Source of the DNA: an uncultured Thiotrichaceae bacterium | GTDB lineage: Bacteria; Pseudomonadota; Gammaproteobacteria; Thiotrichales; Thiotrichaceae | Assembly: GCA_937925855.1 (NCBI GenBank) | Contig: CALAMO010000002.1 | Span: 16,020 to 80,019, forward strand | Direction: 5' to 3' | Length of the DNA: 64,000 bases | Shown: positions 3,291-54,015 of the stretch, piece after piece | Layout: each line of letters begins with the position of its first letter | Numbering within the stretch: position 1 is the first letter of the stretch | Translations under genes and position numbers: made by a program | The notes under the pieces: generated by a model | The model's input: the letters and a program-made list of their open reading frames with translations, nothing else | The model's database searches: none | Told to the model about the DNA's origin: nothing

Positions 3291-5747
<2,457 letters not shown>

Positions 5748-5771
5748 TCATAGGCCTTAAGTGCCTTAAAT

Positions 5772-5814
5772 ACGGCACCTGTGTTTCACATGAAACGTAA
5801 GGTGCCGTTTTGTT
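5772..5814 (+). terminator. Probable gyrB intrinsic terminator
   Basis: Stem ACGGCACC (5772-5779) pairs with GGTGCCGT (5801-5808) and is followed by TTTTGTT. The loop itself contains the GTTTCACATGAAAC palindrome. Confidence 0.55.
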
Positions 5815-5832
5815 AAATGTTTCACATGAAAC
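5783..5832. repeat. Two direct copies of palindrome GTTTCACATGAAAC (5783-5796 and 5819-5832) upstream of prlC
   Basis: Read directly. The arms GTTTCA/TGAAAC are separated by 2 nt, and the copies sit 36 bp apart. Confidence 0.8.
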
Positions 5833-5849
5833 AATGAGCACAGTAAACC

Positions 5850-7952: not shown

Positions 7953-8126
7953 CCAATGCTGAGTTTAATCTTAACCTTAGCTGAGTGAAAAGTCGCGTAA
8001 CTTCATGTTTTATAACAAATAAATTCCGCTTGGCGTAAAAAAAACTATTTTTATCGGCTGAATGTTCACACGCTAACCGGGTTTGGGGTTTACTGGTTTT
8101 ATTCCAACGAACCCCAAGTTGTGTGA

Positions 8127-32155: not shown

Positions 32156-32380
32156 ACCGTCGACTATCCAGCATTTGAGTCTGGAATAGAGGTGTTTTTG
32201 TCACAGAAGCTATGTGAGATAATTACGTGTTGGCTAAAAAACAATCGATTTTGGTTTTGAGCAAGTCTCCGCGTTAACTTTAATATACTATTTCAACCCC
32301 TCATACCGTGCAGGTCGTCGCCTCGCATGCTTGTGAGACAATTTGTTATGCCTGTTACCGTTTTGTCGAGGATATGGTGT

Positions 32381-33361
32381 ATGCGGTTTACTAAACCTAA
32401 GGGCTTTACTGGCAGTGGCTTGCTCTTTCTGGGGTTACTGATGTCACTGCAGCCACTACTAGCGGACGATAAACTCAGCGTTTTTGTCAGTGTCCTGCCA
32501 CAGCAGCTGTTTGTGGAACGCATCGGTGGTGAGGCCGTGGCGGTTGAGGTGATGGTAAAGCCAGGTTTTAGTCCGGCGACGTATGAACCTTCGCCCCGTC
32601 AGATTGCTGCATTAGCTAAGACACAGCTCTATATTCGTATTGGCGTGCCGTTTGAAGCCGCATGGCTACCCCGTATTCGCAGTGTGAACCCAGACATGCT
32701 GCTGTTGGATGCGCGTGATAGCATTGAATTACTGAAACTCGATGACCGTCATCATGGGCATGAAGCACAGTATAATGATGAGCACTCGGCAGTGCAGCAC
32801 GCTGACATTGAGCATACTGAACATACCGGTGCTAAAAAGGTCGCTCATGTCGGGCAGAGGAGTGCGTTTGACCCCCACCTGTGGACAGACCCGCAGCGGG
32901 TTATCACGATGGCTCAGCAAATTAAGCGGCAGTTGACCGCGTTAGTGCCCGCACAGGCCGAGGTGTTCCAGGCAAACTATGTCGCTTTTGCGGCTGAGCT
33001 ACAGGCGCTTGATGACGAGCTGCGCGCGTTGTTTGCGCGGGATGACGCAGCGGATAATAAGAAATTCTTAGTGTTCCATCCTTCCTGGGGATATTTTGCG
33101 GCGACTTATGGTTTGACGCAGTTAGCGATTGAAGCAGAGGGTAAAGAACCCGGTGCAAAGGCGCTCCAAGCCTTAATTAGGCAGGCTAAAGCCGCAAGGG
33201 TGAAAACGATTTTTGTTCAACCGCAGTTTGATCAGCGTGCGGCCCGTCAGGTCGCCAAGGCGATTAAGGGTGAGGTGGTGGCGATCGATCCTTTGGCCGC
33301 TGATTATTTTGCTAATATGCGCCGCGCCGCCCGTCTAATCGCAGGAGTGGGCGATGAGTAG
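32381..33361 (+). CDS. znuA: Zinc ABC transporter substrate-binding protein (ZnuA-like, with a His/Asp/Glu-rich loop)
   Basis: Cluster-9 SBP fold motifs and the loop DDRHHGHEAQYNDEHSAVQHADIEHTEHTG. I prefer the start at ATG 32381 (GAGGA 9 nt upstream, followed by a signal peptide); the track start is 32327. Confidence 0.83.
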   Translation: MRFTKPKGFTGSGLLFLGLLMSLQPLLADDKLSVFVSVLPQQLFVERIGGEAVAVEVMVKPGFSPATYEPSPRQIAALAKTQLYIRIGVPFEAAWLPRIRSVNPDMLLLDARDSIELLKLDDRHHGHEAQYNDEHSAVQHADIEHTEHTGAKKVAHVGQRSAFDPHLWTDPQRVITMAQQIKRQLTALVPAQAEVFQANYVAFAAELQALDDELRALFARDDAADNKKFLVFHPSWGYFAATYGLTQLAIEAEGKEPGAKALQALIRQAKAARVKTIFVQPQFDQRAARQVAKAIKGEVVAIDPLAADYFANMRRAARLIAGVGDE

Positions 33362-34094
33362 CCATGCTGGTGATGCTGTTATCAGCCTGCACAATGTGAG
33401 TTTTTCCTATGACCGCTTGCCGGTGCTGGATGATGTGTCGTTACAGGTCGGCCATAAAGAGTTTCTGGGGATAGTTGGGCCGAATGCGGGGGGTAAAAGC
33501 ACGCTGTTAAAGCTGATCCTGGGTTTGTTAAAGCCGCAGCGTGGTGCAGTGAAAGTGCTTGGTAAAAAGCCGCGTCAACAGCGTAAGGCGATTGGCTATG
33601 TGCCCCAATATCCGGCGTTTTCTCGTGATTTTCCGATTACTGTTGAACAGGTTGTTCTGTTGGGCCGCTTGGGCGCAGGCCGCTGGTTTGGGCGTTATTC
33701 TAAGGCAGATTATCAGGCCGCAAGGATGGCGCTGGAAGAGGTGGAAGCTGATGACCTCGCGCAGCGTCTGGTAGGTGGTTTGTCCGGTGGGCAGCTGCAG
33801 CGTGTGTTGCTGGCTCGGGCGCTGGTGAGTGCGCCACAAATTCTGATTTTAGATGAGCCAACTGCTAATATTGATATGCGGCTGGAAAGTGATATTTTTG
33901 ACCAGTTGAAACGCCTGAACGAGCAGATGACGATACTGGTAGTGTCACATGATATTGCGTTTATTTCAGATTATGTCCAGCGCGTTGCCTGTCTAAATCG
34001 TACTTTGGTTTGTCATCGTACCGACCATATTGATGGTCAGCTGGTGCAGCATTTATATGGTGACAACGTACGCATGGTAGCGCATCATCATTGA
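33354..34094 (+). CDS. znuC: Zinc/metal ABC transporter ATP-binding protein
   Basis: Walker A GPNAGGKST, signature LSGGQLQRV, Walker B ILILDEP. Overlaps the znuA stop. Confidence 0.88.
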   Translation: MSSHAGDAVISLHNVSFSYDRLPVLDDVSLQVGHKEFLGIVGPNAGGKSTLLKLILGLLKPQRGAVKVLGKKPRQQRKAIGYVPQYPAFSRDFPITVEQVVLLGRLGAGRWFGRYSKADYQAARMALEEVEADDLAQRLVGGLSGGQLQRVLLARALVSAPQILILDEPTANIDMRLESDIFDQLKRLNEQMTILVVSHDIAFISDYVQRVACLNRTLVCHRTDHIDGQLVQHLYGDNVRMVAHHH

Positions 34095-34158
34095 ATGATT
34101 AAATCCGTGTTCAAGCCCGCTCCTCCTACCTTTGATCTATACGCAGGCAGGCCGCGTT

Positions 34159-35013
34159 ATGAGTGAGTTTTTCAGTGCACTCAGCGAAGAATCTTTTTTG
34201 CAGATGGCCGTGCTCGCTGGCTTTCTGGCGAGCTTGGGCTGCGGGCTAATTGGTACGTTTGTGGTGGTGAAACGCATTACCTTTATTGCCGGCGGGATCG
34301 CACATTCGGTGTTGGCGGGTATGGGGGCTGCCGTGTATTTTGGCTTTGACCCGCTGTTGGGTGCCTTGATTGCAGCGGTGATTTCCGCGCTACTGATCGG
34401 CTGGATTCGACTTTACTGGGAAGCGCAGGAAGATACGCTGATTGGGGCGCTGTGGGCGATTGGGATGGCGATTGGCTTGATTTTTATTTACCAGACGCCG
34501 GGTTATAGCAGCGATTTAATGAGCTATTTGTTTGGCAATATTCTGTTGGTGCCCACCGAAGACTTGGGGTTTATGCTGCTGCTGGATAGCGTGTTATTGT
34601 TGGCTGTCGTCTTGTTTTATCGCCAATTCTTAGCGGTCATTTTTGACGAGGAGTTTGCCCGTTTGCGCGGCGTACCCGTCAACTTCTTTTATCTGTTATT
34701 ACTGTGCCTGATTGCGGTGACAGTGGTGCTGCTGATTCATGTGGTTGGGTTGATTTTAGTGATTGCACTGTTGACCCTACCGGCGGCAATTGCTGGACAC
34801 TATGTGCGCTCGCTCAGTCATATGATGGTTATTGCGACCCTGCTGGGCTGTGTGTTTACCAGCGGTGGATTGGCTTTATCTTATGCACCTGATTTACCGG
34901 TTGGGCCTGTCATTATTCTATTGGCTGGGCTGGCTTATGTGTTGTCTGCACTGGGTTCGGGTTTGTATGTGAAAGTCAGGGCGCGCTATGCTGTGCGTCA
35001 CTCTGGCGTATAA
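34159..35013 (+). CDS. znuB: Zinc/metal ABC transporter permease
   Basis: Polytopic ABC-3 family permease. I prefer the start at ATG 34159; the track start is TTG 34132. Confidence 0.87.
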   Translation: MSEFFSALSEESFLQMAVLAGFLASLGCGLIGTFVVVKRITFIAGGIAHSVLAGMGAAVYFGFDPLLGALIAAVISALLIGWIRLYWEAQEDTLIGALWAIGMAIGLIFIYQTPGYSSDLMSYLFGNILLVPTEDLGFMLLLDSVLLLAVVLFYRQFLAVIFDEEFARLRGVPVNFFYLLLLCLIAVTVVLLIHVVGLILVIALLTLPAAIAGHYVRSLSHMMVIATLLGCVFTSGGLALSYAPDLPVGPVIILLAGLAYVLSALGSGLYVKVRARYAVRHSGV

Positions 35014-35060
35014 TGCGGTGGGAAATTGATTGACCCGTATGGATGAGAAGGAATTATAGA

Positions 35061-35333
35061 ATGTCTAGTCCGTTTGAAGCGATGATTAAGCAGTTCACTG
35101 AGGCTATGCCAGAGCCGTTAAAGAACGTACAGCAGGATATGGAAAGTAACGTCAGAGGGATTCTGGAAAGCGGCTTGCAGAAGATGAATTTGGTGACGCG
35201 GGAAGAGTTTGAAATCCAGACGGCGGTTTTGCAGCGGACGCGGGAGAAACTGGAGGCGTTGGAAAAGCGAGTGGCTGAATTGGAAGGCGAAGTATTGCCA
35301 GCAGCCCCTGATGTTTTAGCTGATACTGAGTGA
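35061..35333 (+). CDS. ubiK: UbiK/YqiC-family accessory factor
   Basis: ~90 aa coiled-coil protein. LVTREEFEIQTAVLQRTREKLEALEKRVAELE matches the family core. Confidence 0.78.
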   Translation: MSSPFEAMIKQFTEAMPEPLKNVQQDMESNVRGILESGLQKMNLVTREEFEIQTAVLQRTREKLEALEKRVAELEGEVLPAAPDVLADTE

Positions 35334-35340
35334 GATTTGA

Positions 35341-36552
35341 TTAGGCCGGAGTGAGCAGTAGTTCAGGCATATTTCTTTCTTTTCTTTCAGGAAAATCAGC
35401 AAATCTGATTTGTTTACGCCCTGCCTTTTTAGCTTCATACATCAGTGCATCTGCTTTCTCCAGCAGCTTTTCCAGGTCCTCGCCATGGTGTGGATAGCAG
35501 CATACACCGATACTGGCACTTACATGGTACGTTTGATTTCCGTGCACTATAGGTTGTTCAATCGTGCTGAGTACTTTGCGTGCTAGATTACAGACATAAT
35601 CAGTGTCATATTTGTTCCTGAGGTTAGATAGGGCAACGATTTCATCGCCCCCAATGCGAATAACATCACCTCTTTCGTTTAGAAGGTTAATCAGTCGCCT
35701 AGCAATAGTTTGCAGCAGAAAATCGCCCGCTTTGTGCCCGTAGGTATCATTTACCGCCTTAAAACCATCAAGATCCAGATAGAACATGGTAAAGGAGTGT
35801 TGGTTGTCCTCTGCTTCTTTTGCATACAGGTTAAACAATTTATCCAGGTGGCTGCGGTTGTACAAGCCCGTTAAGGTGTCATGTGTGGCGGCGTAAATGG
35901 CCTTTTGCTCGGATGCTTTGGCTCTTTGTTCGGACTCTTTGGTTTGTTTTTCGAATTGTAGGAGGGCGAGAACAGCTAAGGAGAGACCCAGAAACACCCC
36001 TAGGATCATTCCGACCAAAAAACCTATCGGGGCAAACCACTCTACAGCACCTAGCAGCGGGTAGTTTAACCAGTGTACCCCCATTAATGCATATAGTGCT
36101 ATAACGCACTTAATGCTCTGATTTTTAATGGGTAATTTCAACAAGCGAAAAGCTACATATAACATGCTACCGGAGAGAAACGTTACAAATGATAAGTCTG
36201 CTAATAATTTTAGTCCGTTGTTATGTAGCAAACATACAGTTACTGCTGTGATAGCGAAAATTAAAAAATAGAAATTTTCATTAAATTTTAGTCTGAAAAA
36301 TAGCATGGTTCCTACTGTCAGCCCGACGTGAGCGCCCAGCTGGAGTACAGCAAAGACTACTTCACCTGTTACTGTTTTTTCTTGTCCATAAAAAACATAG
36401 GCCAGCAAGTATGAGCATGCTGTGATAAGCATGGATGACATCCACCATGCGACCCCAGGCCTGGAAGGCATTTTTCGTACAACTAGCAACATGGAACTGA
36501 CTAGTACAAAGGAAGTGATGCCGATAATCATGGTGATCTGAAGTGGATGCAT
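35341..36552 (-). CDS. Membrane-anchored diguanylate cyclase (GGDEF domain)
   Basis: ~6 N-terminal TM helices. The C-terminal GGDEF domain has active site RIGGDEI. The gene is visibly AT-richer than its flanks. Confidence 0.87.
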   Translation of the reverse strand: MHPLQITMIIGITSFVLVSSMLLVVRKMPSRPGVAWWMSSMLITACSYLLAYVFYGQEKTVTGEVVFAVLQLGAHVGLTVGTMLFFRLKFNENFYFLIFAITAVTVCLLHNNGLKLLADLSFVTFLSGSMLYVAFRLLKLPIKNQSIKCVIALYALMGVHWLNYPLLGAVEWFAPIGFLVGMILGVFLGLSLAVLALLQFEKQTKESEQRAKASEQKAIYAATHDTLTGLYNRSHLDKLFNLYAKEAEDNQHSFTMFYLDLDGFKAVNDTYGHKAGDFLLQTIARRLINLLNERGDVIRIGGDEIVALSNLRNKYDTDYVCNLARKVLSTIEQPIVHGNQTYHVSASIGVCCYPHHGEDLEKLLEKADALMYEAKKAGRKQIRFADFPERKERNMPELLLTPA

Positions 36553-36734
36553 GGTTATAAATTTATTATTTTAATAGTTTGATTCTAAACCTTACCACCT
36601 GATAGCAAAAATTCACTTCAAGCAGATGGAAGGTTGTAATGAACTAAAATAAAGTAAGGTTTTATCAACGTTTGGTATGTGGAAATTTAGATTTGAATAT
36701 TGTTATTAAGTTATTGATATTTAAAGTTAAAGTG

Positions 36735-36762
36735 GTGGCATGTTGCTAGGATTTCATGCCAC
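36735..36762 (-). terminator. Possible terminator hairpin after the 952-aa gene
   Basis: GTGGCATG-N12-CATGCCAC, 23 nt past the stop at 36785. The trailing sequence is only moderately T-rich. Confidence 0.35.
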
Positions 36763-36784
36763 TTTTAACAATTAACCTTTAAGG

Positions 36785-39643
36785 TTACTTTCTTCTTAAG
36801 CTAAAGAGACTGGGTCTTGTTGCATAACTTAAGTTCAATGTTAATGCTGGGAAGGTATTAGCTCCCATTTTTAACAGTGCGGTAAATTTTTCTTTAAGTG
36901 CAGTAACTTCGTCAACATAGCTCTCTTGCATCAACTCACAGATCTCCTCATGTTTGTTTGCATAAAGAAATATGGGGGAAACAGGCTGCACGGCAAGCCC
37001 TTCCTGTTCTGCCAACAACCATAAATGTTGGACAGCTCGCCCACCATTAAGGTAGTCAGTGTCTGTCTGTCCAGTTGTGCCTACTACAACTGTAGCAGCA
37101 GCATTTCTAATCCTATCGCGGTTGTAATCCCCTAGTGCATAGCCTGCATCCCATTCTGCCAACTGTTCCATGACATCTTCGCGTTGAATGACAGACATTA
37201 CATTGAGGTCTTTGTTGTCCAGTCCTAACGTCCTGATGTCTATGCCTTCTTCAAGTGAGTCTTTGCCCGGCCAGCTTAATTCTGCCATCATTTCCTTGTG
37301 CAAATGACTGCAGAGGTAGCGTAAGCGCGCAGACTCAGCCAAAACTTCACCATATTCTTCTAGTTCATTTTCCTCTGTTAGCAGGTGTAAAGATACAGGG
37401 TGTTGAAATGCTAAAGCGTCCAACTTGGTTATAAATTCAGTAGATAAAGGCTTTCTGTTGCCTATTGCACGATTAGTTATACGGGACATTAAGAATTCAA
37501 ACAAACCAGCTATTGCTTGTTTTTTTGATGAGGTGTTTTGCTTTCTCTTTGTCCATATTGCTACCAGATCACTTTTTTTGGTATCAGTAGGAAAGAATGT
37601 CATGTTGCCTGATAGCTCGTAGTGAGCAGCTACTATTTCTGCATTAAAGCAAGCTGCCCCAATCGCTACCATTGAAGCACGCCAGTTTACATCCAGCGCC
37701 GAGGTGCGCTCTCTGTCAATTTCAAAGTGTAATTTATTATTTTCCCAGTAAATATTCCAAGGCTGAACGTTACCACCTGAGGGAGCAAACTTTGCTGCTA
37801 AAAGCATATCTGATTTTGCTTCACTACAAAAATCAGGCTTTTCTGGTAGAGGATCAATTGGTTTGGTCTTATGTGGAACCGTAGCTTCCTGTAAAATACT
37901 ATCCATATCGATTCTGGCACGACATGAAGGTGTGGGTTTGCCGATTCCAATTCTTCTTACTGCCGTTGCGATGATTGCTGCCCCCTGCGTCACATCAGAA
38001 GCAAGTTGCGGCCAAGTTTTTAGGGTGTTACCGATCTCTGTCATTGATGCAGCTAGACGAGTTGAAATTTTATCGCCTTCCACAATCCCGAGGCCATACC
38101 CAGCCTTGTCCTGATTAGATAGATCTTTCATTTCCTCAGCAGTTGCATCAACTAAACCATGAAATGGTTGCTGTTTATGATTTTGATCATAACGTTCAAT
38201 ATCAATCATTCCGAGATCACTAGTTGACATGAGAACGGGGATGCCATGTTTAGCTGCTGCTTCTCTGAGCTGCAATTTAATATCCAGCGAATCACATTCA
38301 TCAATAATTATATCAAGGCCATTAACAAAGTTTTCAATGTTATTTTTCTTAATGCCTTCTTCAAAAACATCAATTGTTATGTATGGATTGAGCTCTGCTA
38401 CACGACGTGCCGTGATCACAGCTTTGTTTAGGCCAATATCTAATAATGATGCAGGAACCCGGTTTAGGTTCGAGGTTTCGAGAACATCAAAGTCAGCTAG
38501 CTTTAAATGCCCACACAAACCTTCCATAGCGAGAGTATGGGCAATAGCGTGACCTGTACTTAATCCAGCAATGCCTATTCTGAGATTTAACAACTTTTCT
38601 TGTTCGTCAGCCGTAATTTTATTTTTATTTCGATTAGTGTGCAATTCTCTAAATTCAGAAGGCGCAAGAATTTTTAGTGCTGTTTTTCGCCATGGATAAA
38701 GTATCCAGCGGCTATTGTCTTTGTGATCGTAAGATTCATCTTTTTGATGCGTACTTTTCAGTTCTTTACACATGTCTTTTATATGTGAGATTTTTTTGTA
38801 ATCGCTATCCATTTGCATGGATTCAATTGGAATCATATGAAACGAATTCTTCTCGTCTAATATTATTGGTAAATATATACTCTGATTGTTATTAATTTCT
38901 ATTATCCGATTTTGATGGATAATTGGCCACTCTCTTCCAAGTAAGGTAAGATTCCTATCATGAGCGCGATCAGTAATTGTCTGCATGTCAAAAAATCCAC
39001 AGCTTGTCTTAAATGAATCATTGGGATAGGGCACACAACCAATATTATCTAATTCATGCATACCTAATTCAGCATAGGTTTTTTTCATATTTTGTGGAAA
39101 CGAATAAATTAAATAACGAGCCTCCATAATTAAAGCTCCATAGACTGCGGCTCTTGCCATAAGTCCAAGTGCTACCTTCCGAGTTGAGTGCGTGGACTGA
39201 ACCCATACTCCTTTAGGTTCAATGACTTTTTCGGGTATCCACGACTTAATGTACTTTTTCAAAAGCGTGCTGTTTCCCGCTTCCATTTCATGAATGATGA
39301 AGGAATCATCTGGTTTTGCTATGGGCTGATGGAGTCTAACACCAGCAACAACATCGCCATCAGCAATCGCTAACATAGCTAAGGGTACACAACCTGGTGA
39401 CTCTAGTGCCTTTAGATCAAGTACCGAGCTGGCTCCAATTCGAGTGTATTCTCTGGTTAAGCCTTCTACATACTTCAGCCACATATATGGATAATCAGAC
39501 GGATTGAATATGAATAGCTTTATTTCTTGATGTGTTGGCAACTTAACTTCGATATAATCGTGCTTAAATGATTGATATTGATGAGAGTTGGATAAAAACA
39601 AAACATTACTAGTCAATAAATTTTTGTTTGAACTGAGACCCAT
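36785..39643 (-). CDS. Three-module protein: unknown N-terminal domain (possibly GNAT-like), ThiF/E1-like adenylyltransferase, and nitroreductase-like domain (Rv1355c-type core)
   Basis: Start ATG 39643 with GGAG 6 nt upstream. Rossmann motif RIGIAGLSTGHAIAHTLAMEG...LADFDVLETSNLNRV lies at aa ~365-410. The nitroreductase-type motif APSGGNVQPW begins the C-terminal ~320 aa. The gene is strongly AT-rich. Confidence 0.85.
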   Translation of the reverse strand: MGLSSNKNLLTSNVLFLSNSHQYQSFKHDYIEVKLPTHQEIKLFIFNPSDYPYMWLKYVEGLTREYTRIGASSVLDLKALESPGCVPLAMLAIADGDVVAGVRLHQPIAKPDDSFIIHEMEAGNSTLLKKYIKSWIPEKVIEPKGVWVQSTHSTRKVALGLMARAAVYGALIMEARYLIYSFPQNMKKTYAELGMHELDNIGCVPYPNDSFKTSCGFFDMQTITDRAHDRNLTLLGREWPIIHQNRIIEINNNQSIYLPIILDEKNSFHMIPIESMQMDSDYKKISHIKDMCKELKSTHQKDESYDHKDNSRWILYPWRKTALKILAPSEFRELHTNRNKNKITADEQEKLLNLRIGIAGLSTGHAIAHTLAMEGLCGHLKLADFDVLETSNLNRVPASLLDIGLNKAVITARRVAELNPYITIDVFEEGIKKNNIENFVNGLDIIIDECDSLDIKLQLREAAAKHGIPVLMSTSDLGMIDIERYDQNHKQQPFHGLVDATAEEMKDLSNQDKAGYGLGIVEGDKISTRLAASMTEIGNTLKTWPQLASDVTQGAAIIATAVRRIGIGKPTPSCRARIDMDSILQEATVPHKTKPIDPLPEKPDFCSEAKSDMLLAAKFAPSGGNVQPWNIYWENNKLHFEIDRERTSALDVNWRASMVAIGAACFNAEIVAAHYELSGNMTFFPTDTKKSDLVAIWTKRKQNTSSKKQAIAGLFEFLMSRITNRAIGNRKPLSTEFITKLDALAFQHPVSLHLLTEENELEEYGEVLAESARLRYLCSHLHKEMMAELSWPGKDSLEEGIDIRTLGLDNKDLNVMSVIQREDVMEQLAEWDAGYALGDYNRDRIRNAAATVVVGTTGQTDTDYLNGGRAVQHLWLLAEQEGLAVQPVSPIFLYANKHEEICELMQESYVDEVTALKEKFTALLKMGANTFPALTLNLSYATRPSLFSLRRK

Positions 39644-39869
39644 AGTTAACTCCAGCATTATTAACAAGCTATTACCTGTGTATGCTTGTTAGGGTTAAGA
39701 AGAGTCTCTCTTAGAAATTTTATTTAGTAGCTTTATAAGTAACACTTAACAATATTTATGGGTTGGAAAGAAAATTCACTAAGGATAAGGGGAGTTTTTT
39801 TGCAGATGAGTGGTTTTTGAACTCATTGGTGGGAGGTATAAATATGGTGACTATGCATAAAAATTGCTT

Positions 39870-39894
39870 CCCAAGCCACTGACAATGGCTTGGG
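39870..39894 (-). terminator. Probable terminator of the DUF3047 gene
   Basis: On the minus strand, CCCAAGCC-N9-GGCTTGGG is followed by AAGCAATTTTTAT. Confidence 0.5.
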
Positions 39895-39940
39895 AAATTG
39901 TGATGTTTGTATCAACTCAATAGAAGGGGCGTGGTCTTCT

Positions 39941-40585
39941 CTACTGCGCCGAAAAGAATATATCCCCATAAGCCGCAGTCGCCTGACCTTTACCATTATC
40001 AGTATCTGTCATAATGGCAACGCCATCGATCTCAGTGATGTCTTTACCAAAGATGCGCTTAAAATCGGCGCGTACATTACGTTTTTCCCGCACCCAGCCA
40101 CCGACCTTATCCTCTGAACCACGGACGGCGGTCATCTTAGCATTTTTGGGTAAATAAGCATTGTCCCAGGTTGTACCGCGTGGCTGGTTGCTTGACCAGA
40201 CATAGTTCATCGCTTTGGTATTCCAAGGGATAATACCGCCATCAACAATAACGTAAATCCGCGCAGCGTAATCATCACCCTGCTTGCTTTGTTCGTCGAG
40301 GGTGCCTAATTTATTATCGATACGCCAACTCCAGTTCATCACAGGGGTTTTGGTGAGGTCAATATTAACTTTTTTCCCTAGGCCCGAAGCAGCGCTGTTG
40401 CTGGTTGCTGTCAACACTTTGGTATTGCCCTCGGCGCTGATTTGGTATTGTGTTGTGCCGCTGAACGCCTTGGTTTCCCAACCGGCCAACTGGCCCTTAG
40501 AAAACTCGCCGACCACAACGTTTTCACTAGCCATGATAGGGCTAGTGAGCGCGATACCAGCTAACAGAGCATAGAATTTTTTCAT
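39941..40585 (-). CDS. DUF3047-family periplasmic protein
   Basis: Signal peptide. 214 aa. NWSWRIDN...GDDYAARIYVIV block as in DUF3047 proteins (recognised from memory). Confidence 0.8.
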   Translation of the reverse strand: MKKFYALLAGIALTSPIMASENVVVGEFSKGQLAGWETKAFSGTTQYQISAEGNTKVLTATSNSAASGLGKKVNIDLTKTPVMNWSWRIDNKLGTLDEQSKQGDDYAARIYVIVDGGIIPWNTKAMNYVWSSNQPRGTTWDNAYLPKNAKMTAVRGSEDKVGGWVREKRNVRADFKRIFGKDITEIDGVAIMTDTDNGKGQATAAYGDIFFSAQ

Positions 40586-40704: not shown

Positions 40705-42135
40705 TTACCCAATGGGTTTTTTCATTGTGACCAGCTCTTCCGCACTTACCGGGTGAATGGCCACGGTATCATCAAAGTCCTGCTTAGTAGCCCCCATTTT
40801 AATGGCTACAGCAAAGCCCTGGAGCATCTCATCCACGTCCTTACCCAAGAGGTGACAGCCGACGACTTTTTCTTCTTCTCCCACCACAATGAGTTTCATC
40901 AGCGTTTTCACCTTGTGCTGGGTGAAGGCGTAATACATTGGGTTAAATTCAGTTGAGTACACCTTGACCGTTTCGCCATACTGCGCGCGCGCCTCTGCTT
41001 CGGTCAGGCCAATCGTGCCGATCGGCGGGTGAGTAAACATTACAGTAGGAATCAGCTGATAATCCAGCTTACGCCCTGCCATGCCGCCATATAAACGATC
41101 TGCTAGCCGTCGTCCTGCCGCAATGGCGACCGGCGTTAGCTGAACGCCTCGTTTGTTGATGATATCCCCAAGCGCATAGAGTCCGGCAACATGAGTTTCC
41201 TGATAATCATCAACGTCAATCAATCCGCCCCGTGCCAACGTGATACCCGTATTTTCTATGCCAATATCATCGGTATTGGGCACACGCCCCACAGCCCATA
41301 ACACCTGATCCAGGTCGGTTATGACCGTACCGTCGGCGAGGTGTATACTTAAGCGCCCATCCGCTTGTTGCTCGACAGCGGTGATTTTGTCTTGAGTATT
41401 GGACTGAATGCCTTCTTTATCCATCTGCTTACGCAGCGCTGCTCGAATATCAGCATCAAAACCACGCAGTACTGAATGTCCCTGATGCAACAGATGAGTT
41501 TCAGTGCCCAGCGCATTCAGCACACCCGCCAGTTCCAGTGCGATATAGCCACCGCCGACCACCGCAACCTTCGCGGGCTGCGCTTCGTCTAGCTCAAAGA
41601 AACCATCTGAACTGATCACTAAGTCAGCGCCAGGTAGATCGGCAGGTGGGTCAGCTGGGCGTCCACCGGTCGAAATCACAATGCGGTCAGCAGTATACTG
41701 TGCGCCATCGACGGCAATGGTCTTCGCGTTCACGAAGCGCGCCTTACCTTCGATGAGTTCGACGCCTGCCTCAGCTAGAAATTCGTAATACCAGTCGTTA
41801 ATTCCACCGATCATGTTTTCACGCTTGGCGACCAGTTTTTTCCAATCCAGTTTGCCCGCCTTAACATCGAAGCCATAGTCGGCCGCATGGTGCATTGCAT
41901 GTGCCAAATTAGCGGAGTACCACATCACCTTTTTGGGTACGCAGCCTCGGTTGACACAGGTGCCTCCCATCACATCAGACTCAATGATCAAACACTTCGC
42001 ACCATAGCTGGCGGCGCGTTCCACCACAGACAGACCGCCGCTCCCGGCACCAATCGTAATCAGATCAAAATCATTAGGCTGCGCGTCAGAAGCTGCTGCT
42101 GTCTGTGACGAAAGATCTGTTTGACGGTTACTCAT
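40705..42135 (-). CDS. gor: Glutathione-disulfide reductase
   Basis: FAD motif IGAGSGG. Redox-active [18 protein letters not shown]-terminal HP dyad region (AIHPVSAEE). Confidence 0.9.
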
Positions 42136-43792: not shown

Positions 43793-44368
43793 ATGAGCAC
43801 GGGAATGATTACTTTTTTTGCGATGTTGGGTGGGCTGATCGTCTGGATAATCGTGCTGTATAATCATTTGGTTATGCTGAAAAACAACTCTGACAAGGCG
43901 TGGAGCAATATTGATGTCCTGTTGAAGCAGCGTAATGAGGAGCTGCCCAAGTTGATTGCGGTGTGTAAAGAGCACATGCAGTATGAGCAGGAAACCTTAC
44001 AAAGAGTGATTGCAGCCCGTAGTCGGGTGGAAACCGCGCTGAAGGCGGGTGATATGGGTTCGATTGGGATGGCAGAAGATCAGCTCCGGCTAGGACTGGG
44101 CCAGCTATTTGCCGTGGCGGAGGATTATCCTGAACTGAAGGCCAGCGATGCCTTCCTGCAACTTCAGATGCGTATTACGACCCTGGAAGACAATATTGCG
44201 GATCGGCGCGAGTTTTATAATGACTCCGCGAATCTGAATAATACCCGGATTGAACAGTTTCCTGATGTACTGATTGCCCGCATGTTTTCCTTCCGGCGCT
44301 ACCGCTTAATGAGTTTTACCACGCTAGAAAAGCATGATGTGGATATTGCGGCTAATTTTAAGCACTGA
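43793..44368 (+). CDS. LemA-family protein
   Basis: N-terminal TM, then YNHLVMLKNNSDKAWSNIDVLLKQRNEELPKL, the family hallmark. Confidence 0.9.
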   Translation: MSTGMITFFAMLGGLIVWIIVLYNHLVMLKNNSDKAWSNIDVLLKQRNEELPKLIAVCKEHMQYEQETLQRVIAARSRVETALKAGDMGSIGMAEDQLRLGLGQLFAVAEDYPELKASDAFLQLQMRITTLEDNIADRREFYNDSANLNNTRIEQFPDVLIARMFSFRRYRLMSFTTLEKHDVDIAANFKH

Positions 44369-44423
44369 GTGGCTAGGTCGCCGCATGCGCTATCGCACCA
44401 CCTGTCACTCCAGCTAAGTCCCG

Positions 44424-45305
44424 ATGTTCTCAAAGCAGCAGTCCCCGTTCTTAGGTTGGTCCTATTTTTTACGGCATCAATACCGTGTGCTGTGGCGTAA
44501 GGGTGGCTTGGTGAATGCCATGGCGCGTCCGAGCCTTCTATTGACTTGGGCGTTATGCGGTTATGGACTGATTTACAGTACCGGTACGGTCTGGTTGTGG
44601 CTATTTGCGCTCTTGAGTCTGTCTTTTGCGCTGGCTTTGTATCAGCGTTATCGCTTGTTAGTCGATACCGCAACGTCGGCGGTGAGTAGTAGTGCACAGG
44701 GCTATGTTGCGCTACAGGGGACAGCGCGGCTGCCCGATGGGGAATATACACGCGGTTTGCCGCAGCTGCCGGTCACACTTTGGCTGCCGGGTTATATTGA
44801 AGACCAGCCATTTTACTTGCTCGATGACGCTGGGCGTTGCTTGCTGTACCCGGAGGCAGCCGATATTGTCATCCAACCCTCAAACCACCATTACCACTGG
44901 CTACAGGCGATTTACCCGGGCCAGACGCTGTATGTGCTCGGTGATATGCGTACCTATACTGGGGATAATACGCGCCATGGCTATCACTATCGGGTCAGTG
45001 AGTTACTGGCGCGGTGGAAGAGCAATTCTTTTAATTTGCTCGGTGCGTTTGATAAGAATGGTGACGGTCGGCTGTGTGCTGAGGAGTGGGCCGTCGCGGT
45101 AAAGTCTGCACAACAGCTGGCGCGTGAGGCTCAGGCAGAAAATCGCTATAAAACGGGCACCCACATTATTGACCGCTCAAGCGGCGGCAGATTATTCATG
45201 ATCAGCAATATTCCACCGGATCGACTGGCGACCCGCTATCGGATTGCCAGCGGTTTATACAGCGCAGCATGGTTAGGCGTGCTGGTGATATACTATTCCG
45301 CTTAA
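44424..45305 (+). CDS. Membrane protein with a GIDE-like domain and a canonical EF-hand loop
   Basis: TM segments at both ends. GYVALQGTA... resembles GIDE-type partners of LemA. DKNGDGRLCAEE fits the 12-residue EF-hand loop (D1, N3, D5, G6, E12). Confidence 0.68.
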   Translation: MFSKQQSPFLGWSYFLRHQYRVLWRKGGLVNAMARPSLLLTWALCGYGLIYSTGTVWLWLFALLSLSFALALYQRYRLLVDTATSAVSSSAQGYVALQGTARLPDGEYTRGLPQLPVTLWLPGYIEDQPFYLLDDAGRCLLYPEAADIVIQPSNHHYHWLQAIYPGQTLYVLGDMRTYTGDNTRHGYHYRVSELLARWKSNSFNLLGAFDKNGDGRLCAEEWAVAVKSAQQLAREAQAENRYKTGTHIIDRSSGGRLFMISNIPPDRLATRYRIASGLYSAAWLGVLVIYYSA

Positions 45306-49765: not shown

Positions 49766-50156
49766 GCTTGGAATTGAATTTTTTTCATGTGTGTGGCTAT
49801 CGATAAGGAAAAACTCACTATTGAAACTGAGGTTTTGTGGTGCTGAGCAGGAGCAATAGTATGCTCAAAAAAGTTCCGTTATGGTATAGGTATTGTTTTG
49901 GGTCTCAACACGATATTAACAAAATAAAGATAGTTTTGGTCGCGATAATGGAAATAATGGACAGCATCTTTTTTTACAAACCTTGTTCGAATCTTTTACA
50001 ATAGCCACTAACCGCTGATTTTGTACAACGCGAGGACATTTAATCAGATGAAACGGATCCGCATGACAAAATAACTGATGTCCATCAGCACAAATTTAGC
50101 ATGTTCTCTCAACCAACACTAATAACCCAAACTATTCCAAAGAGGAAAGGAATACT

Positions 50157-50564
50157 ATGAATAGCAAAATTAAGGGTAGCTGCTTATGCGGCAGGGTAAA
50201 GTTCACCTTAGTAAAAGATTTCAAGGCGTTTCACCTTTGCCACTGCAAGCAATGTCGGAAAATTACCGGTTCCGCCCACGCTTCGAACTTGTTTACCGCT
50301 CCCGAAAATATCGAGTGGAGCGCTGGCAAAGCGCTATTGCAGACCTTTGATCATCCCGATAATAATTTCCGTAAAGTATTCTGCCGTGAATGTGGTTCAG
50401 GCTTGCCCTATGAGTCGCGCCGCATCCCTATGCTAATTGTGCCTGCGGGCTCGCTTGATGATGAGCCAGAAACAGAACCTATGGATCATATCTTTTGGCA
50501 TGAGAAAGCCAAATGGTATGAGTCTGTCAGCGATAAAGTTACTTTTGACGGCTTTCCTGCCTAG
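50157..50564 (+). CDS. GFA/CENP-V family zinc protein (glutathione-dependent formaldehyde-activating enzyme-like)
   Basis: CLCGRVKF...CHCKQCRK...CRECG cysteine pattern. 135 aa. Confidence 0.87.
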   Translation: MNSKIKGSCLCGRVKFTLVKDFKAFHLCHCKQCRKITGSAHASNLFTAPENIEWSAGKALLQTFDHPDNNFRKVFCRECGSGLPYESRRIPMLIVPAGSLDDEPETEPMDHIFWHEKAKWYESVSDKVTFDGFPA

Positions 50565-50677
50565 TGCACGGTCTCCTTTGTGACCTGCCGCGACACATTC
50601 AGTGTCAATATTTAACCTCAGAGGTTGCATAACCTACATATTAATGAATTTGATATAAAAAATAAGGGCGTTTTGTA

Positions 50678-51226
50678 ATGAAAAAATTTAGTAGTAAAAT
50701 GAATGGGTTAAGGCTGAATTCTGGTCTTCTTTCGGCCATGATTGTGCTGATGATACCCTTCAATAGTACAGTAGCCAGTGAAATTAACACAACGCGGGCT
50801 GTACCGGACTATGGGAATAACGACTGTGTATCATTTAAATACAGTGCGGATACTAATCCGCTGAATTTCACCTTTGGTTATGCCTGCGTGTCTGAAAATT
50901 TCTGTGAGGTTTCTGAGCATGGCTGCGTCGATGAAGACTGTCAACACAGCGATTACAGCAGAGGCGTCCGCACTACGCTGACCCATATCTCAATGACGGC
51001 GCGGGTTGATCAGATCAGCCTGGGGGCGATGGGTGAAGATTTAGCTAGCCATGCGCAGTGGTGCTTGGTGCAAGATGGTGTGGGTAACTATTGGGCGCTG
51101 GACAAGCAGCGTGGCACCTCGGAGCTGTTCAGTCTTGATAATCAAAAGGAAACAGTGATTGCTTGTAAAGACACTGATTATTTCCATAGCGAACTTGGCT
51201 GTATGACTGGGGCTGCAGCGCAATAA
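50678..51226 (+). CDS. Hypothetical secreted cysteine-rich protein
   Basis: Signal-like N-terminus and 9 Cys in the mature part. No family recognised. AT-rich context. Confidence 0.5.
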   Translation: MKKFSSKMNGLRLNSGLLSAMIVLMIPFNSTVASEINTTRAVPDYGNNDCVSFKYSADTNPLNFTFGYACVSENFCEVSEHGCVDEDCQHSDYSRGVRTTLTHISMTARVDQISLGAMGEDLASHAQWCLVQDGVGNYWALDKQRGTSELFSLDNQKETVIACKDTDYFHSELGCMTGAAAQ

Positions 51227-51690
51227 TTTTTGTGCAAAAAGGTATGTGTCTAATGAATTAAAAATAGACACGAACATAGAGAATTTAACCTCTATTTCTG
51301 GTGATTCATTTAATCAGGGGTAAGCTAAAATTGGTCATAATTTGTTATTGATCGCTGAAAAATTGGGAAAAGAGTTTGAGTCACTTGCAAATAAGCAAAA
51401 TGGTTTCTTCGCATTTGAATAAAATTTTCTTATATTTTAATCTCAATAATTAAAATGCTCTTATTTATCAGGCAAATGGATTTCGCCTGATTTATGGCGC
51501 AATCATTACGTTGGGTTGACTGATGATTGGCTCAAACATGCCCTGATGGCAACGGTTCAGGGCCATGGGACACATCACCAACATAATTAATACTCTGAAA
51601 ACACCGGATAGAACGGAAACAGATTGAGTCACATATTTTTTAAAATTTTTTTGTGTTAAGTTCAACGTCTCCCTTTATTTGCGTTGACTC

Positions 51691-54015
51691 ATGATCCGAC
51701 TGCTGCATACATGCTTTGGAATACTACTGTTTTGCCTGCTTTTACCAACGACCAGCACAGCAGATAACGGCACCGTTAGTCCCTCACAATCGGCCCCAGG
51801 CCTTGACGATTACGCCCTTCAGGTCGAACAGGCGATTAAACGCTTTGAAAGCAATCGCGCTGATCCTGACATCCTGAAAACAATCAGCCGTGAAACCCTG
51901 GCCGCCGCCAATTACGCACAAGGCTGTATTGCTGAACAGGAAAGCAAAATAGCGAAAGTCACGGAATCGCTGGATAGTCTGGGGACAGTTCACCCCAATG
52001 AATCACTCTCAGCTCCCCACAAAGCGCTAGCCAAACAGAAACAAGAGGTCGAAAAAGTACTCTCACAGTGCCGTTTACTTAATGTTCGTACCAAAGACTT
52101 ACTGGAGCAGACCCAGACCGCTGAGCAGGACTTGCTGAAAGAGCGGATGTTTGCACGTAACCCCTCAGTATCTGATTTCATTTCAGGAGTGCTGGCCCAG
52201 CCACGCTCGCTACAACAGGAAGTGGAACAAATTCTGCGGACACTGGGCAATCTGCCACTTAATAAAGATAATTTTTATATGGCTTTGGTATACGGTGGAC
52301 TGGGACTGATAATTGGTTTTTTCTGGAGTTTATATAAACGGCGCACACCCGAAAACCAAACATCCGGCACGTTCCTAACCAGCCCAACGTTGGCTACTGT
52401 TTGGAATAGCATTATTCGGGTTTCCCCCGGCCTTTTAATGTTTGGCATGATCAATCTGAGCTTTCTGTTTGCTCCGGTTGGTATGCCTGCCGTGCATAAT
52501 CTGGCGCTGAGCTTATTGATGTTTACCATCAGCTACACGATTCTGCGCGCTATATTAAGGCCACAAAGCAGTCTGCATGGTTTCCAACCCTTACTCCCGA
52601 ACACGTCGCGCAAATTATTTTACTGGGGACGTTTGTTATTGCTCGCGACCTTAGCCAGTGCATTTTTTCAGTCCGTCCTGTTTGATACTGATCCGCTGAG
52701 TAATTTGGTTGGGTTAATTCGTCTTGGTCTCGGCACGCTGGCGGGGCTCGCCTTAATGTGTGTCTTATGGTTCCTGCGTAAGCCCATCCCCACGGTCAAA
52801 CAAGCTTATCTGCATTTCCTGTCCATTATTGTGATTTCAGTCGCGATTATTGCGCTCTGGCTGGGCTATACCAATTTTGCTATTTTTCTGTTTCAGGGGG
52901 TCGCGGGTACGCTGTTTATTCTCTTACTGGGCTGGTTACTGGTACGCATCCCCGCTGAAATGTTTGATGGCATGGATGCCGGCAATACGGTCTGGCAGCA
53001 AAGAATACGCCAAAAAATGGCCTTACAGGACGCGCAAATCGTTCCCGGCCTGATCTGGCTGCGACTCGTGCATATTCTGATTATTGGCAGTGTAGTCATT
53101 ATCGCTTTGCTGATGTTATGGGGCATGTCAGAACAGCAGCTCAACCTCATGGCCTCCCGTATCGCCAGCGGCTATGAGATCGGCGGTTTTACGCTGGAAC
53201 CACTCAGCATTCTCAGCGGTTTATCACTCCTGGCCTTTTTGATCTTGCTGACCCAGTTCGTTAAGCGCAGTCTGGCGCAACACTGGTTGACTAAAACCAA
53301 TCTGAGCCGGGGCGCAAGAGAGGCTACCGTCACCATTACCGGCTATGTTGGGGTAGCGACAGCGGTGTTTATGGGGCTGTCGATGGCGGGGATTAATTTT
53401 GGCAGTCTGGCGCTGATCGCCGGTGCGCTGTCGGTGGGTATTGGCTTTGGCCTACAGAATATCGTTAACAACTTTATCTCCGGCCTGATTTTATTGTTTG
53501 AGCGTCCGATCCGGCGCGGTGACTGGATTCGGGTCGGCGCATCTGAGGGTTATGTCAAAGACATCAGCATTCGTTCCACTATTATCAATACCTTTGACCG
53601 CGCTGACATTATTGTGCCGAATTCCGAACTAATCTCGAATCAGGTCACTAATATGATGCTGAACGATCCGGTGGGGCGCGTCATTATTCCGGTCAGAGTG
53701 GCGTATGGCGCTGATACGCAACAGGTGATGGATACCCTGCGCAGCGTAGCTGAAATTCATCCGGCGGTATTACGTGAACAGGGGAAATTACAGATTTGGG
53801 TATTGTTCCGCCGCTTTGGAGAAGATGCTATGCACTTTGAGCTGCGGTGTTATATTCGGGATGTGGAAGAAATTCTTAATATCACCAGTGAGCTGAATTT
53901 GGCGATAGATGGCGCTTTTCGTAAAGCGGGCATTAACATGCCTTACCCACGGCAAGTGGTGGAATTGGAAAGTAGTGATAACGCTCAGGATACAATTCCT
54001 AATCACAACCAATGA
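51691..54015 (+). CDS. Large mechanosensitive channel of the MscS superfamily (MscK/KefA-like)
   Basis: 774 aa. Signal peptide plus a periplasmic coiled coil, ~10 TM helices, and an MscS core (LQNIVNNFISGLILLFERPIRRGDWIRV). Confidence 0.9.
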   Translation: MIRLLHTCFGILLFCLLLPTTSTADNGTVSPSQSAPGLDDYALQVEQAIKRFESNRADPDILKTISRETLAAANYAQGCIAEQESKIAKVTESLDSLGTVHPNESLSAPHKALAKQKQEVEKVLSQCRLLNVRTKDLLEQTQTAEQDLLKERMFARNPSVSDFISGVLAQPRSLQQEVEQILRTLGNLPLNKDNFYMALVYGGLGLIIGFFWSLYKRRTPENQTSGTFLTSPTLATVWNSIIRVSPGLLMFGMINLSFLFAPVGMPAVHNLALSLLMFTISYTILRAILRPQSSLHGFQPLLPNTSRKLFYWGRLLLLATLASAFFQSVLFDTDPLSNLVGLIRLGLGTLAGLALMCVLWFLRKPIPTVKQAYLHFLSIIVISVAIIALWLGYTNFAIFLFQGVAGTLFILLLGWLLVRIPAEMFDGMDAGNTVWQQRIRQKMALQDAQIVPGLIWLRLVHILIIGSVVIIALLMLWGMSEQQLNLMASRIASGYEIGGFTLEPLSILSGLSLLAFLILLTQFVKRSLAQHWLTKTNLSRGAREATVTITGYVGVATAVFMGLSMAGINFGSLALIAGALSVGIGFGLQNIVNNFISGLILLFERPIRRGDWIRVGASEGYVKDISIRSTIINTFDRADIIVPNSELISNQVTNMMLNDPVGRVIIPVRVAYGADTQQVMDTLRSVAEIHPAVLREQGKLQIWVLFRRFGEDAMHFELRCYIRDVEEILNITSELNLAIDGAFRKAGINMPYPRQVVELESSDNAQDTIPNHNQ

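Follow-up and report, generated by a model that had tools for sequence, protein, structure and literature searches.

A fused trzA-trzS gene in an uncultured Thiotrichaceae bacterium: a probable single-protein N-acyl-amino-acid oxazolone synthase beside a GGDEF gene

The characterised synthases of N-acyl oxazolones are systems of separate proteins. In Pseudoalteromonas rubra and other Proteobacteria, OxzA and OxzB form a tyrazolone/phenazolone synthetase (de Rond et al. 2021; bioRxiv 10.1101/2020.06.11.147165). In Mycobacterium tuberculosis, TyzA, TyzB and TyzC (Rv2336, Rv2338c and Rv2337c) make up a C12-tyrazolone pathway (Grigg et al., JBC 2023, PMC10404671). TrzS (Rv1355c) converts N-acyl-L-tryptophan to N-acyl tryptazolones, with an ATP-dependent cyclisation first and an O2-dependent desaturation after it, and the N-acyl-tryptophan is made by a separate acyltransferase encoded upstream, TrzA (Rv1356c); this pathway is described from M. 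tuberculosis, M. smegmatis and Rhodococcus jostii RHA1 (Kleetz et al., JBC 2025, PMC12856293). Here we describe a gene in a 64,000-nucleotide stretch of DNA (the window) from an uncultured Thiotrichaceae bacterium (GenBank assembly GCA_937925855.1, contig CALAMO010000002.1, positions 16,020 to 80,019 of the forward strand). To judge from its sequence and from these described systems, the gene is very probably a natural TrzA-TrzS fusion that would act as a self-contained, trifunctional N-acyl-amino-acid oxazolone synthase.

The closest likeness is to TrzA/TrzS. The window protein belongs to the same NCBIfam equivalog family as TrzS, has the same domain order, keeps the residues that align with D217, R540 and Q651 of the M. 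smegmatis enzyme (TrzS_Msmeg), and is accompanied both by a TrzA-homologous acyltransferase and by a downstream gene of cyclic diguanosine monophosphate (c-di-GMP) metabolism, which is Rv1354c-like in the known system. Unlike TrzA, the window acyltransferase is covalently fused at the N-terminus. The host is a gammaproteobacterium, the partner is a transmembrane (TM)-GGDEF protein rather than a GAF-GGDEF-EAL protein, and identity to the actinobacterial TrzS-type proteins is 40-44% over the core and about 20% over the TrzA part. The OxzA/OxzB loci share with the window an acyl-coenzyme A (CoA) N-acyltransferase followed by a ThiF-nitroreductase didomain that makes oxazolones, as well as proteobacterial hosts. 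However, OxzA is encoded by a separate gene, and the OxzB-like loci are of another subfamily (30-36% identical) that lacks GGDEF linkage. The same three enzyme types recur in TyzA, TyzB and TyzC, but these are three separate proteins with a reaction order that is not obligate, and their flavin-dependent oxidase falls in a different subcluster. Among the searchable papers that mention these compounds, none was found to describe a triple fusion. What is new is the covalent three-domain architecture, together with a linkage to c-di-GMP genes that crosses phyla; both component families were already known, with characterised members.

Domain architecture of the fused protein

The fused gene occupies 36785-39643 of the minus strand and encodes 952 amino acids plus a stop codon, with a putative N-acyltransferase, a ThiF-like cyclase and a flavin-dependent oxidase in that order. 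A preliminary description of this DNA, made from the sequence alone, had reported a single 952-residue reading frame with a ThiF-type middle and a nitroreductase-like C-terminus, and both points were borne out. The minus-strand open reading frame (ORF) at 36785-39667 is unbroken and would run to 960 codons from a TTG start; the ATG at 39643, preceded at a distance of 7 nucleotides by GGAG (39650-39653), gives the 952-residue product. Pfam ThiF matches residues 339-474 (E 5e-27) and Pfam Nitroreductase residues 813-901 (E 4e-10). The non-coding stretch upstream (39644-39866, minus strand) presumably holds the gene's own promoter along with the GGAG ribosome-binding site, and a promoter scan there gave sigma-70-like matches at background level, none of them convincing. 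In the full-length AlphaFold2 model (predicted local distance difference test, pLDDT, 82.6) there are four folded units, at residues 30-252, 258-337, 338-600 and 609-940; residues 1-29 are predicted to be disordered. An architecture of 940-980 residues is also found in independent assemblies, from Leucothrix, Thiolinea and metagenome-assembled genomes (MAGs) of Acidimicrobiia. Because homologues of the same length recur in this way, the N-terminal extension is not a frameshift artefact, and the possibility named in the preliminary description, a separate gene after a sequencing frameshift, can be dropped.

The core of the protein, residues 250-951, scores 789.2 bits with the NCBIfam model NF005901 ("Rv1355c family protein"), whose cutoff is 476, and covers model positions 4-712 of 722. 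On this profile match it is a genuine full-length member of the TrzS/Rv1355c family. The preliminary description had placed the protein in this family, also known as MoeY-type, and had called the family poorly understood; the placement holds and the characterisation does not, as Rv1355c is TrzS, a characterised tryptazolone synthase (PMC12856293) with relatives in OxzB and TyzBC. The first part of the core is a small alpha/beta subdomain proper to the family (residues ~258-337; 38633-38872, minus strand), seen in the NF005901 match, in the AlphaFold2 model and in an alignment of 22 family members that includes 710-residue short forms, which also possess it. Next comes the ThiF/E1-like adenylating (cyclase) domain (residues ~338-600; 37844-38632, minus strand), to which TcdA and ThiF are the sequence matches in the PDB. 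The C-terminal part, residues ~609-952 with the stop codon (36785-37819, minus strand), is a predicted flavin-dependent oxidase of the nitroreductase superfamily with an Acg-like tandem fold. It matches NCBIfam NF047509, the Acg-family flavin mononucleotide (FMN) oxidoreductases, at residues 613-908 (E 1.7e-34), beginning at the motif APSGGNVQPW, and its PDB sequence match is Acg. The nearest solved structures are Acg (Rv2032-type; PDB 2YMV) for the oxidase domain and TcdA (PDB 4D7A) for the ThiF domain. TcdA also closes an oxazolone ring, that of ct6A (PMC12596934). Unlike the window protein, both are single-domain proteins acting on other substrates, which for TcdA is tRNA.

Residue conservation in the core follows the catalytic requirements reported for TrzS. 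The D217A, R540A and Q651A variants of TrzS_Msmeg are defective, and R540 and Q651 matter for FMN content and desaturation (PMC12856293). In the 22-member alignment, the nucleotide-binding and adenylation residues G357, G360, G364, D384, N392, R395, K407 and D451 of the window protein are invariant, as are R773 and R775 in the oxidase domain, while Q886 is conserved as Q or H. D451, R773/R775 and Q886 correspond to D208, R530/R532 and Q642 of the Mycolicibacterium protein P0073 and, by an offset of +9, to D217, R540 and Q651 of TrzS_Msmeg, with R540 answering to either R773 or R775.

The N-terminal domain (residues ~30-255; 38879-39556, minus strand) has no Pfam, NCBIfam or PDB sequence-profile match, and it was identified by comparison with neighbouring genes and by fold search. 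In Nocardia cyriacigeorgica, a 257-codon gene overlaps the start of a short-form trzS, which is the trzA position; its product has no Pfam match either. Residues 47-213 of the window protein align with this product (BLASTP E 1e-12), and a home-made TrzA hidden Markov model (HMM) matches the window domain with E 3.5e-102. A word-indexed homologue search with the domain alone returned one protein. A profile of the fused N-termini run against 1.84 billion representatives returned a small family of 338 clusters, most of them stand-alone proteins of 200-290 residues; about 18 of the best 150 matches are fusions of at least 770 residues. Across 24 fused and 29 stand-alone TrzA sequences, nine residues are invariant (P48, W55, Y66, G101, E142, W147, G194, P207 and T213) and two more, R103 and R164, are 96% conserved. 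The window protein keeps all eleven.

The AlphaFold2 model of residues 1-265 (pLDDT 81.7; predicted template modelling score 0.79) points in the same direction. Foldseek places FeeM (2G0B) first, at E 3e-7, followed by the acyl-homoserine lactone (AHL) synthases TofI, MesI, EsaI, BjaI, LasI and RpaI and then by generic GNATs; for FeeM and the AHL synthases the probability is 1.0 and the template modelling score, normalised to the target, 0.63-0.70. A match to FeeM and AHL synthases, BjaI among them, has likewise been published for the model of TyzA (PMC10404671). The domain is therefore best described, from sequence comparison and the predicted structure, as a TrzA homologue with a FeeM/AHL-synthase-type fold of the GNAT superfamily. 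It would share with FeeM/NasY and with the LuxI-type and CoA-dependent AHL synthases (2G0B, 5W8C, 1RO5 and 1KZF) both this fold and an amide-forming acyl transfer onto an amino-acid amine, but there is no detectable sequence similarity to those enzymes, which stand alone. The preliminary description had ventured a weak GNAT-like assignment for the N-terminus, with structure prediction and Foldseek as the means of checking it, and FeeM as best match agrees with that guess. It had also set the length of the extra domain at ~320 residues. An additional domain does exist, but it is about 225 residues long, and NF005901 already begins at residue 250.

Distribution of the fusion and the downstream GGDEF gene

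The context of these genes was surveyed in 84 distinct loci, in which ORFs were called and scanned with home-made TrzA and TrzS HMMs and with a GGDEF profile that jackhmmer built starting from the GGDEF domain encoded in the window. The resulting synteny statistics describe a pattern-biased sample, among the matches listed by the genome scan; the genome of the window and the Leucothrix loci were both absent from those matches. PMC10404671 puts the FDO-A4/TrzS group of flavin-dependent oxidases at about 14,000 sequences. Sixty loci were of TrzS type. The TrzA domain is part of the same ORF in 22 of them, 26 (of the 38 unfused) have a separate trzA immediately upstream on the same strand, three have trzA elsewhere in the locus, and in nine trzA was not detected. 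No separate trzA was found within ~6 kb in the fused loci examined. Fused loci were seen in MAGs of Acidimicrobiia and other Actinomycetota, in one Acidobacteria MAG, in Leucothrix and in the window; those with a separate upstream trzA come from Nocardia, Mycobacterium, Nakamurella, Rhodococcus and Jiangella. E. coli genomes contain no match to the synthase gene or its flanks, and the window proteins are singletons when clustered at 90% identity.

An unbootstrapped neighbour-joining (NJ) tree puts the window protein at the base of a gammaproteobacterial-type fused clade that includes Leucothrix, Thiolinea and metagenome sequences. This clade is sister to all actinobacterial TrzS proteins, with the OxzB-like proteins as the outgroup. 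The tree may be compatible with one fusion or with two independent fusions. Separately, the ThiF region of the window protein was matched by NCBIfam NF011425 (PRK14852, a 989-residue model named "hypothetical protein") at profile positions 308-455. This is a family of long multi-domain ThiF proteins with an N-terminal part of ~300 residues, and it may represent an analogous fusion in another lineage.

Downstream of the synthase gene, on the same strand, lies a gene for a membrane-anchored diguanylate cyclase (35341-36552, minus strand), with approximately 6-7 TM helices and a GGDEF domain at residues 222-381 (Pfam GGDEF E 1.8e-43, also recognised by NCBIfam). Its signature motif is GGDEI rather than GGDEF or GGEEF, it has no RxxD I-site, and its multi-TM N-terminal domain of ~200 residues has no Pfam match. 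This adjacent gene was absent from the preliminary description, and we judge it to be the most informative part of the context. The protein is 43% identical, over its full length, to the partner encoded downstream of the fused gene of Leucothrix, and the gamma-type partners in general (window, Leucothrix, Thiolinea and two metagenome contigs) are proteins of ~400 residues with 6-7 TM helices and a GGDEF domain, sharing 42-47% full-length identity. In Actinomycetota, the partner is a GAF-GGDEF-EAL protein resembling Rv1354c.

A published adjacency of a TrzS-type synthase and a c-di-GMP gene exists for M. tuberculosis only. In the present survey, a GGDEF gene lies directly downstream on the same strand in 43 of the 57 TrzS-type loci whose sequence extends at least 1.5 kb downstream, and somewhere within ~6 kb in 54 of them; among fused loci it is directly downstream in all cases (21/21). 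In the OxzB-like outgroup (Bacteroidota, Myxococcota, Streptomyces and Janthinobacterium), at most one of 23 loci has a GGDEF gene in that position. The synthase and the membrane diguanylate cyclase thus form a conserved two-gene cassette, and the synthase product is therefore probably tied to c-di-GMP signalling.

Two variations in the arrangement were seen. In a Thiolinea MAG contig (JBMZDK010000179.1, locus L087), the synthase is followed at 5525-8050 by a tandem pair of TM-GGDEF paralogues that lie on the opposite strand and share 68% identity, where other loci have one same-strand gene. Most Acidimicrobiia fused loci (for example L006-L015), as well as L004 and L005, have a conserved pair downstream, consisting of a GAF-GGDEF-EAL protein (~766 residues) and a short GGDEF-only protein (~274-299 residues); in L004 and L005 an unannotated 199-residue protein follows the pair.

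Proposed chemistry and competing interpretations

By homology to the characterised separate-protein systems, a three-step reaction sequence can be proposed. The FeeM/AHL-synthase-like domain would move an acyl group from acyl-CoA, or possibly from an acyl carrier protein, onto a free L-amino acid at its alpha-amine; this amino acid is probably an aromatic one. The ThiF-like domain would then adenylate the carboxylate, using ATP and Mg2+, and attack by the amide oxygen would close a saturated 5(4H)-oxazolone ring. Lastly, the FMN domain, with O2, would desaturate the C-alpha/C-beta bond to give a conjugated 4-ylidene oxazolone of the tryptazolone or tyrazolone type; hydrolysis of this product may yield an N-acyl dehydro-amino acid. 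When two proteins share the work, the N-acyl-tryptophan intermediate builds up mostly in the culture supernatant (PMC12856293); the fusion would plausibly hold this diffusible N-acyl amino acid on the enzyme. The protein had earlier been described as a self-contained acyl/adenylate/redox enzyme of unknown product. The enzyme logic of that description is retained here, but its second half is not, since the product class can be predicted from TrzS, OxzB and TyzBC.

Several points weigh against an oxazolone synthase of exactly this kind. Specificity for the amino acid (tryptophan, tyrosine, phenylalanine or another) and for the acyl chain is not transferable from the characterised actinobacterial TrzS proteins, since in the unbootstrapped tree all of these fall in the sister group of the gamma-type fused clade. 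Over the N-terminal domain, identity to stand-alone TrzA is only 18-25%; the comparison used the positional orthologue in Nocardia in place of Rv1356c, and the domain is recognised by no curated model. The residues of TrzS_Msmeg were mapped by a constant offset from Mycolicibacterium homologues and not on the M. smegmatis sequence itself. Finally, co-transcription of the synthase and GGDEF genes is no more than a possibility, with a 232-bp spacer between them (36553-36784, minus strand; GC 0.28, no terminator detected) and with the GGDEF genes of Thiolinea L087 on the opposite strand.

The strongest alternative keeps the chemistry and changes the end product. It is possible, if less likely, that the enzyme yields a ring-opened N-acyl-2,3-dehydro-amino acid, like thalassotalic acid, kyonggic acid or the stieleriacines, or else an oxazolone derived from an amino acid that is not aromatic. 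Clusters that combine an N-acyl amino acid synthase with ThiF and nitroreductase proteins occur in producers of N-acyl dehydrotyrosine in which no oxazolone was detected (PMC12479983), oxazolones are readily hydrolysed (PMC12856293), and the window protein falls outside the characterised, tryptophan-specific actinobacterial clade of the NJ tree. However, OxzAB, TyzACB and TrzAS, all three of which have been reconstituted, give oxazolones when extraction is carried out without acid and alcohol, both of which open the ring (PMC12856293).

It is improbable that the TrzA-like domain is instead a dead remnant, serving only to bind or deliver a substrate while the N-acyl amino acid comes from another enzyme. 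The low identity to stand-alone TrzA would fit such a remnant, but every family-invariant residue is kept, no separate trzA was seen within ~6 kb in the fused loci examined, and the fused form has been retained in two deep clades.

The historical annotation, in which the protein would be an adenylyltransferase of MoeY/MoeB type, activating a sulfur carrier in the making of molybdopterin or thiamin, is very unlikely and was rejected: ThiF/MoeB models do match the middle domain (E 1e-17 to 1e-21), but every ThiF/MoeB equivalog model falls far short of its cutoff (scores of 38-82 bits, cutoffs of 152-650), the whole 952-residue protein has no CxxC zinc motif, no MoaD/ThiS-like gene for a beta-grasp carrier partner lies nearby, and Rv1355c itself has been shown to be an oxazolone synthase (PMC12856293). 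There is just as little to favour a role in a thiazole/oxazole-modified microcin (TOMM) or other azoline pathway for peptides that are ribosomally synthesised and post-translationally modified (RiPPs), or in an E1-like anti-phage (Cap2/6A-MBL) system, and both were rejected. The pairing of E1-like and nitroreductase folds resembles SagC/SagB, and PADLOC E1-E2 models match the ThiF core (best E 4e-11), but the oxidase domain is of the Acg type of flavin-dependent oxidases and not SagB-type, and the PADLOC matches are confined to the Rossmann core. There is no fused E2 domain, and no YcaO, E2, JAB or CD-NTase gene and no credible Cys/Ser/Thr-rich short ORF lies within ~5 kb; the short-ORF scan gave only ORFs embedded in other genes. 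The preliminary description had heard an echo of azoline-RiPP machinery, which is not sustained, the substrates expected here being small molecules. It had also seen no carrier protein or precursor peptide gene nearby, and the neighbourhood annotation and short-ORF scan agree.

Composition, probable horizontal exchange and surroundings of the locus

No other ORF in the window is as AT-rich as the gene for the probable oxazolone synthase, which has a GC content of 0.400 and a GC at third codon positions (GC3) of 0.338, compared with a mean GC3 of 0.543 (standard deviation 0.040) over the 46 other ORFs (z = -5.1), and the GGDEF gene is the second lowest (GC3 0.436, z = -2.7). The host was placed by similarity of its glutathione reductase (Gor) only: this protein shares 78-90% identity with its counterparts in Thiolinea MAGs and 72% with the one in Thiothrix, and the host is therefore taken to be a Thiolinea-like Thiotrichaceae.

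Related loci differ more in the synthase than in its surroundings. Locus L086 (Logan SRR22346075 contig, 3254 bp) and L087 share an upstream hipA-DUF3047 flank with 89.5% DNA identity, and the DUF3047 stop codon is the exact point at which this similarity stops. The N-terminus of the L086 synthase is 72% identical to that of the window protein but only 53% to that of L087. Similarly, the window and L087 synthases are 49.5% identical, whereas the DUF3047 proteins are 88% identical. The trees of the synthase and of the flank are thus incongruent. A terminator-like hairpin (39867-39897, minus strand) with a 14-bp stem and a T-run ends the DUF3047 transcript and forms the left edge of the variable cassette. 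Together, the incongruence, the GC3 deviation and the isolating hairpin point to cassette replacement by horizontal exchange at a conserved site, and they support acquisition or replacement of the cassette in a Thiolinea-like genome. Of the two points made in the preliminary description, the AT-richness is confirmed and the horizontal acquisition is supported by these data. In Leucothrix (locus L001, GC 0.44), the composition of the synthase gene is host-like. No tRNA and no Rfam family was found in the 64-kb window, and there is thus no tRNA-linked integration site.

The DUF3047 gene (39941-40585, minus strand; Pfam E 6e-62) encodes a secreted-looking protein of 214 residues. The gene resembles the host in GC, ends in a strong terminator of its own and is the immediate upstream neighbour of the synthase gene, both in the window and in two contigs of Thiolinea-like origin (L086 1750-2394; L087 1545-2189), with 87-96% amino acid identity. 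It seems to be a conserved landmark at the left border of the variable cassette and not part of the cassette. The L086 gene (2676-3239), the closest relative of the window synthase, has a stop after residue 187, 15 bp before the contig end, and could be a pseudogene or an assembly-end error.

It may be that trzAS-GGDEF is a portable signalling cassette, in which an N-acyl oxazolone would serve as an autoinducer-like lipid whose production or perception is wired to c-di-GMP synthesis, and in which divergent, horizontally exchanged alleles at a fixed site would resemble the diversification of quorum-sensing pherotypes. This extension is speculative and rather unlikely on present evidence.

The other neighbours of the synthase are DUF3047, gor, endA, ubiK and a metal ATP-binding cassette (ABC) transporter. 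An AztABC/ZnuABC-like metal ABC importer (binding protein, ATPase and permease; 32327-35013, plus strand) is followed by ubiK (35043-35333), which is convergent with the GGDEF gene, ends 7 bp from the end of that gene and forms the right border of the low-GC cassette. The longest gor ORF (40705-42135, minus strand; 476 residues) is ~21 codons longer at the N-terminus than homologues of 454-455 residues (95% coverage), and its true start is probably an internal ATG. Further along (43793-45305, plus strand) is a common membrane gene pair, a LemA-family gene and a gene for a 293-residue protein with weak EF-hand and GIDE matches only. A second, milder low-GC stretch (50000-52000, GC 0.43-0.44) contains a GFA-family gene, an unannotated 182-residue ORF (50678-51226) and the start of a gene for a 774-residue MscS-type channel.

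N-acyl oxazolones were discovered in 2021, and findings of 2023 and 2025 added M. tuberculosis. A whole three-step pathway in one polypeptide would be a compact biocatalyst and a clean genetic handle, with one gene for one metabolite. TrzS-type synthases, but not OxzB-type ones, are mostly followed by a c-di-GMP turnover gene, across Actinomycetota and Gammaproteobacteria and despite differing sensor domains (GAF in one, multi-TM in the other). The GGDEF adjacency hints at a signalling role for these lipids, and with its occurrence across phyla a coupling of oxazolone signals to c-di-GMP becomes a hypothesis that can be tested directly with a simple set of two genes. A one-gene pathway with an obligate GGDEF neighbour offers a direct experimental route to the function of bacterial oxazolones.

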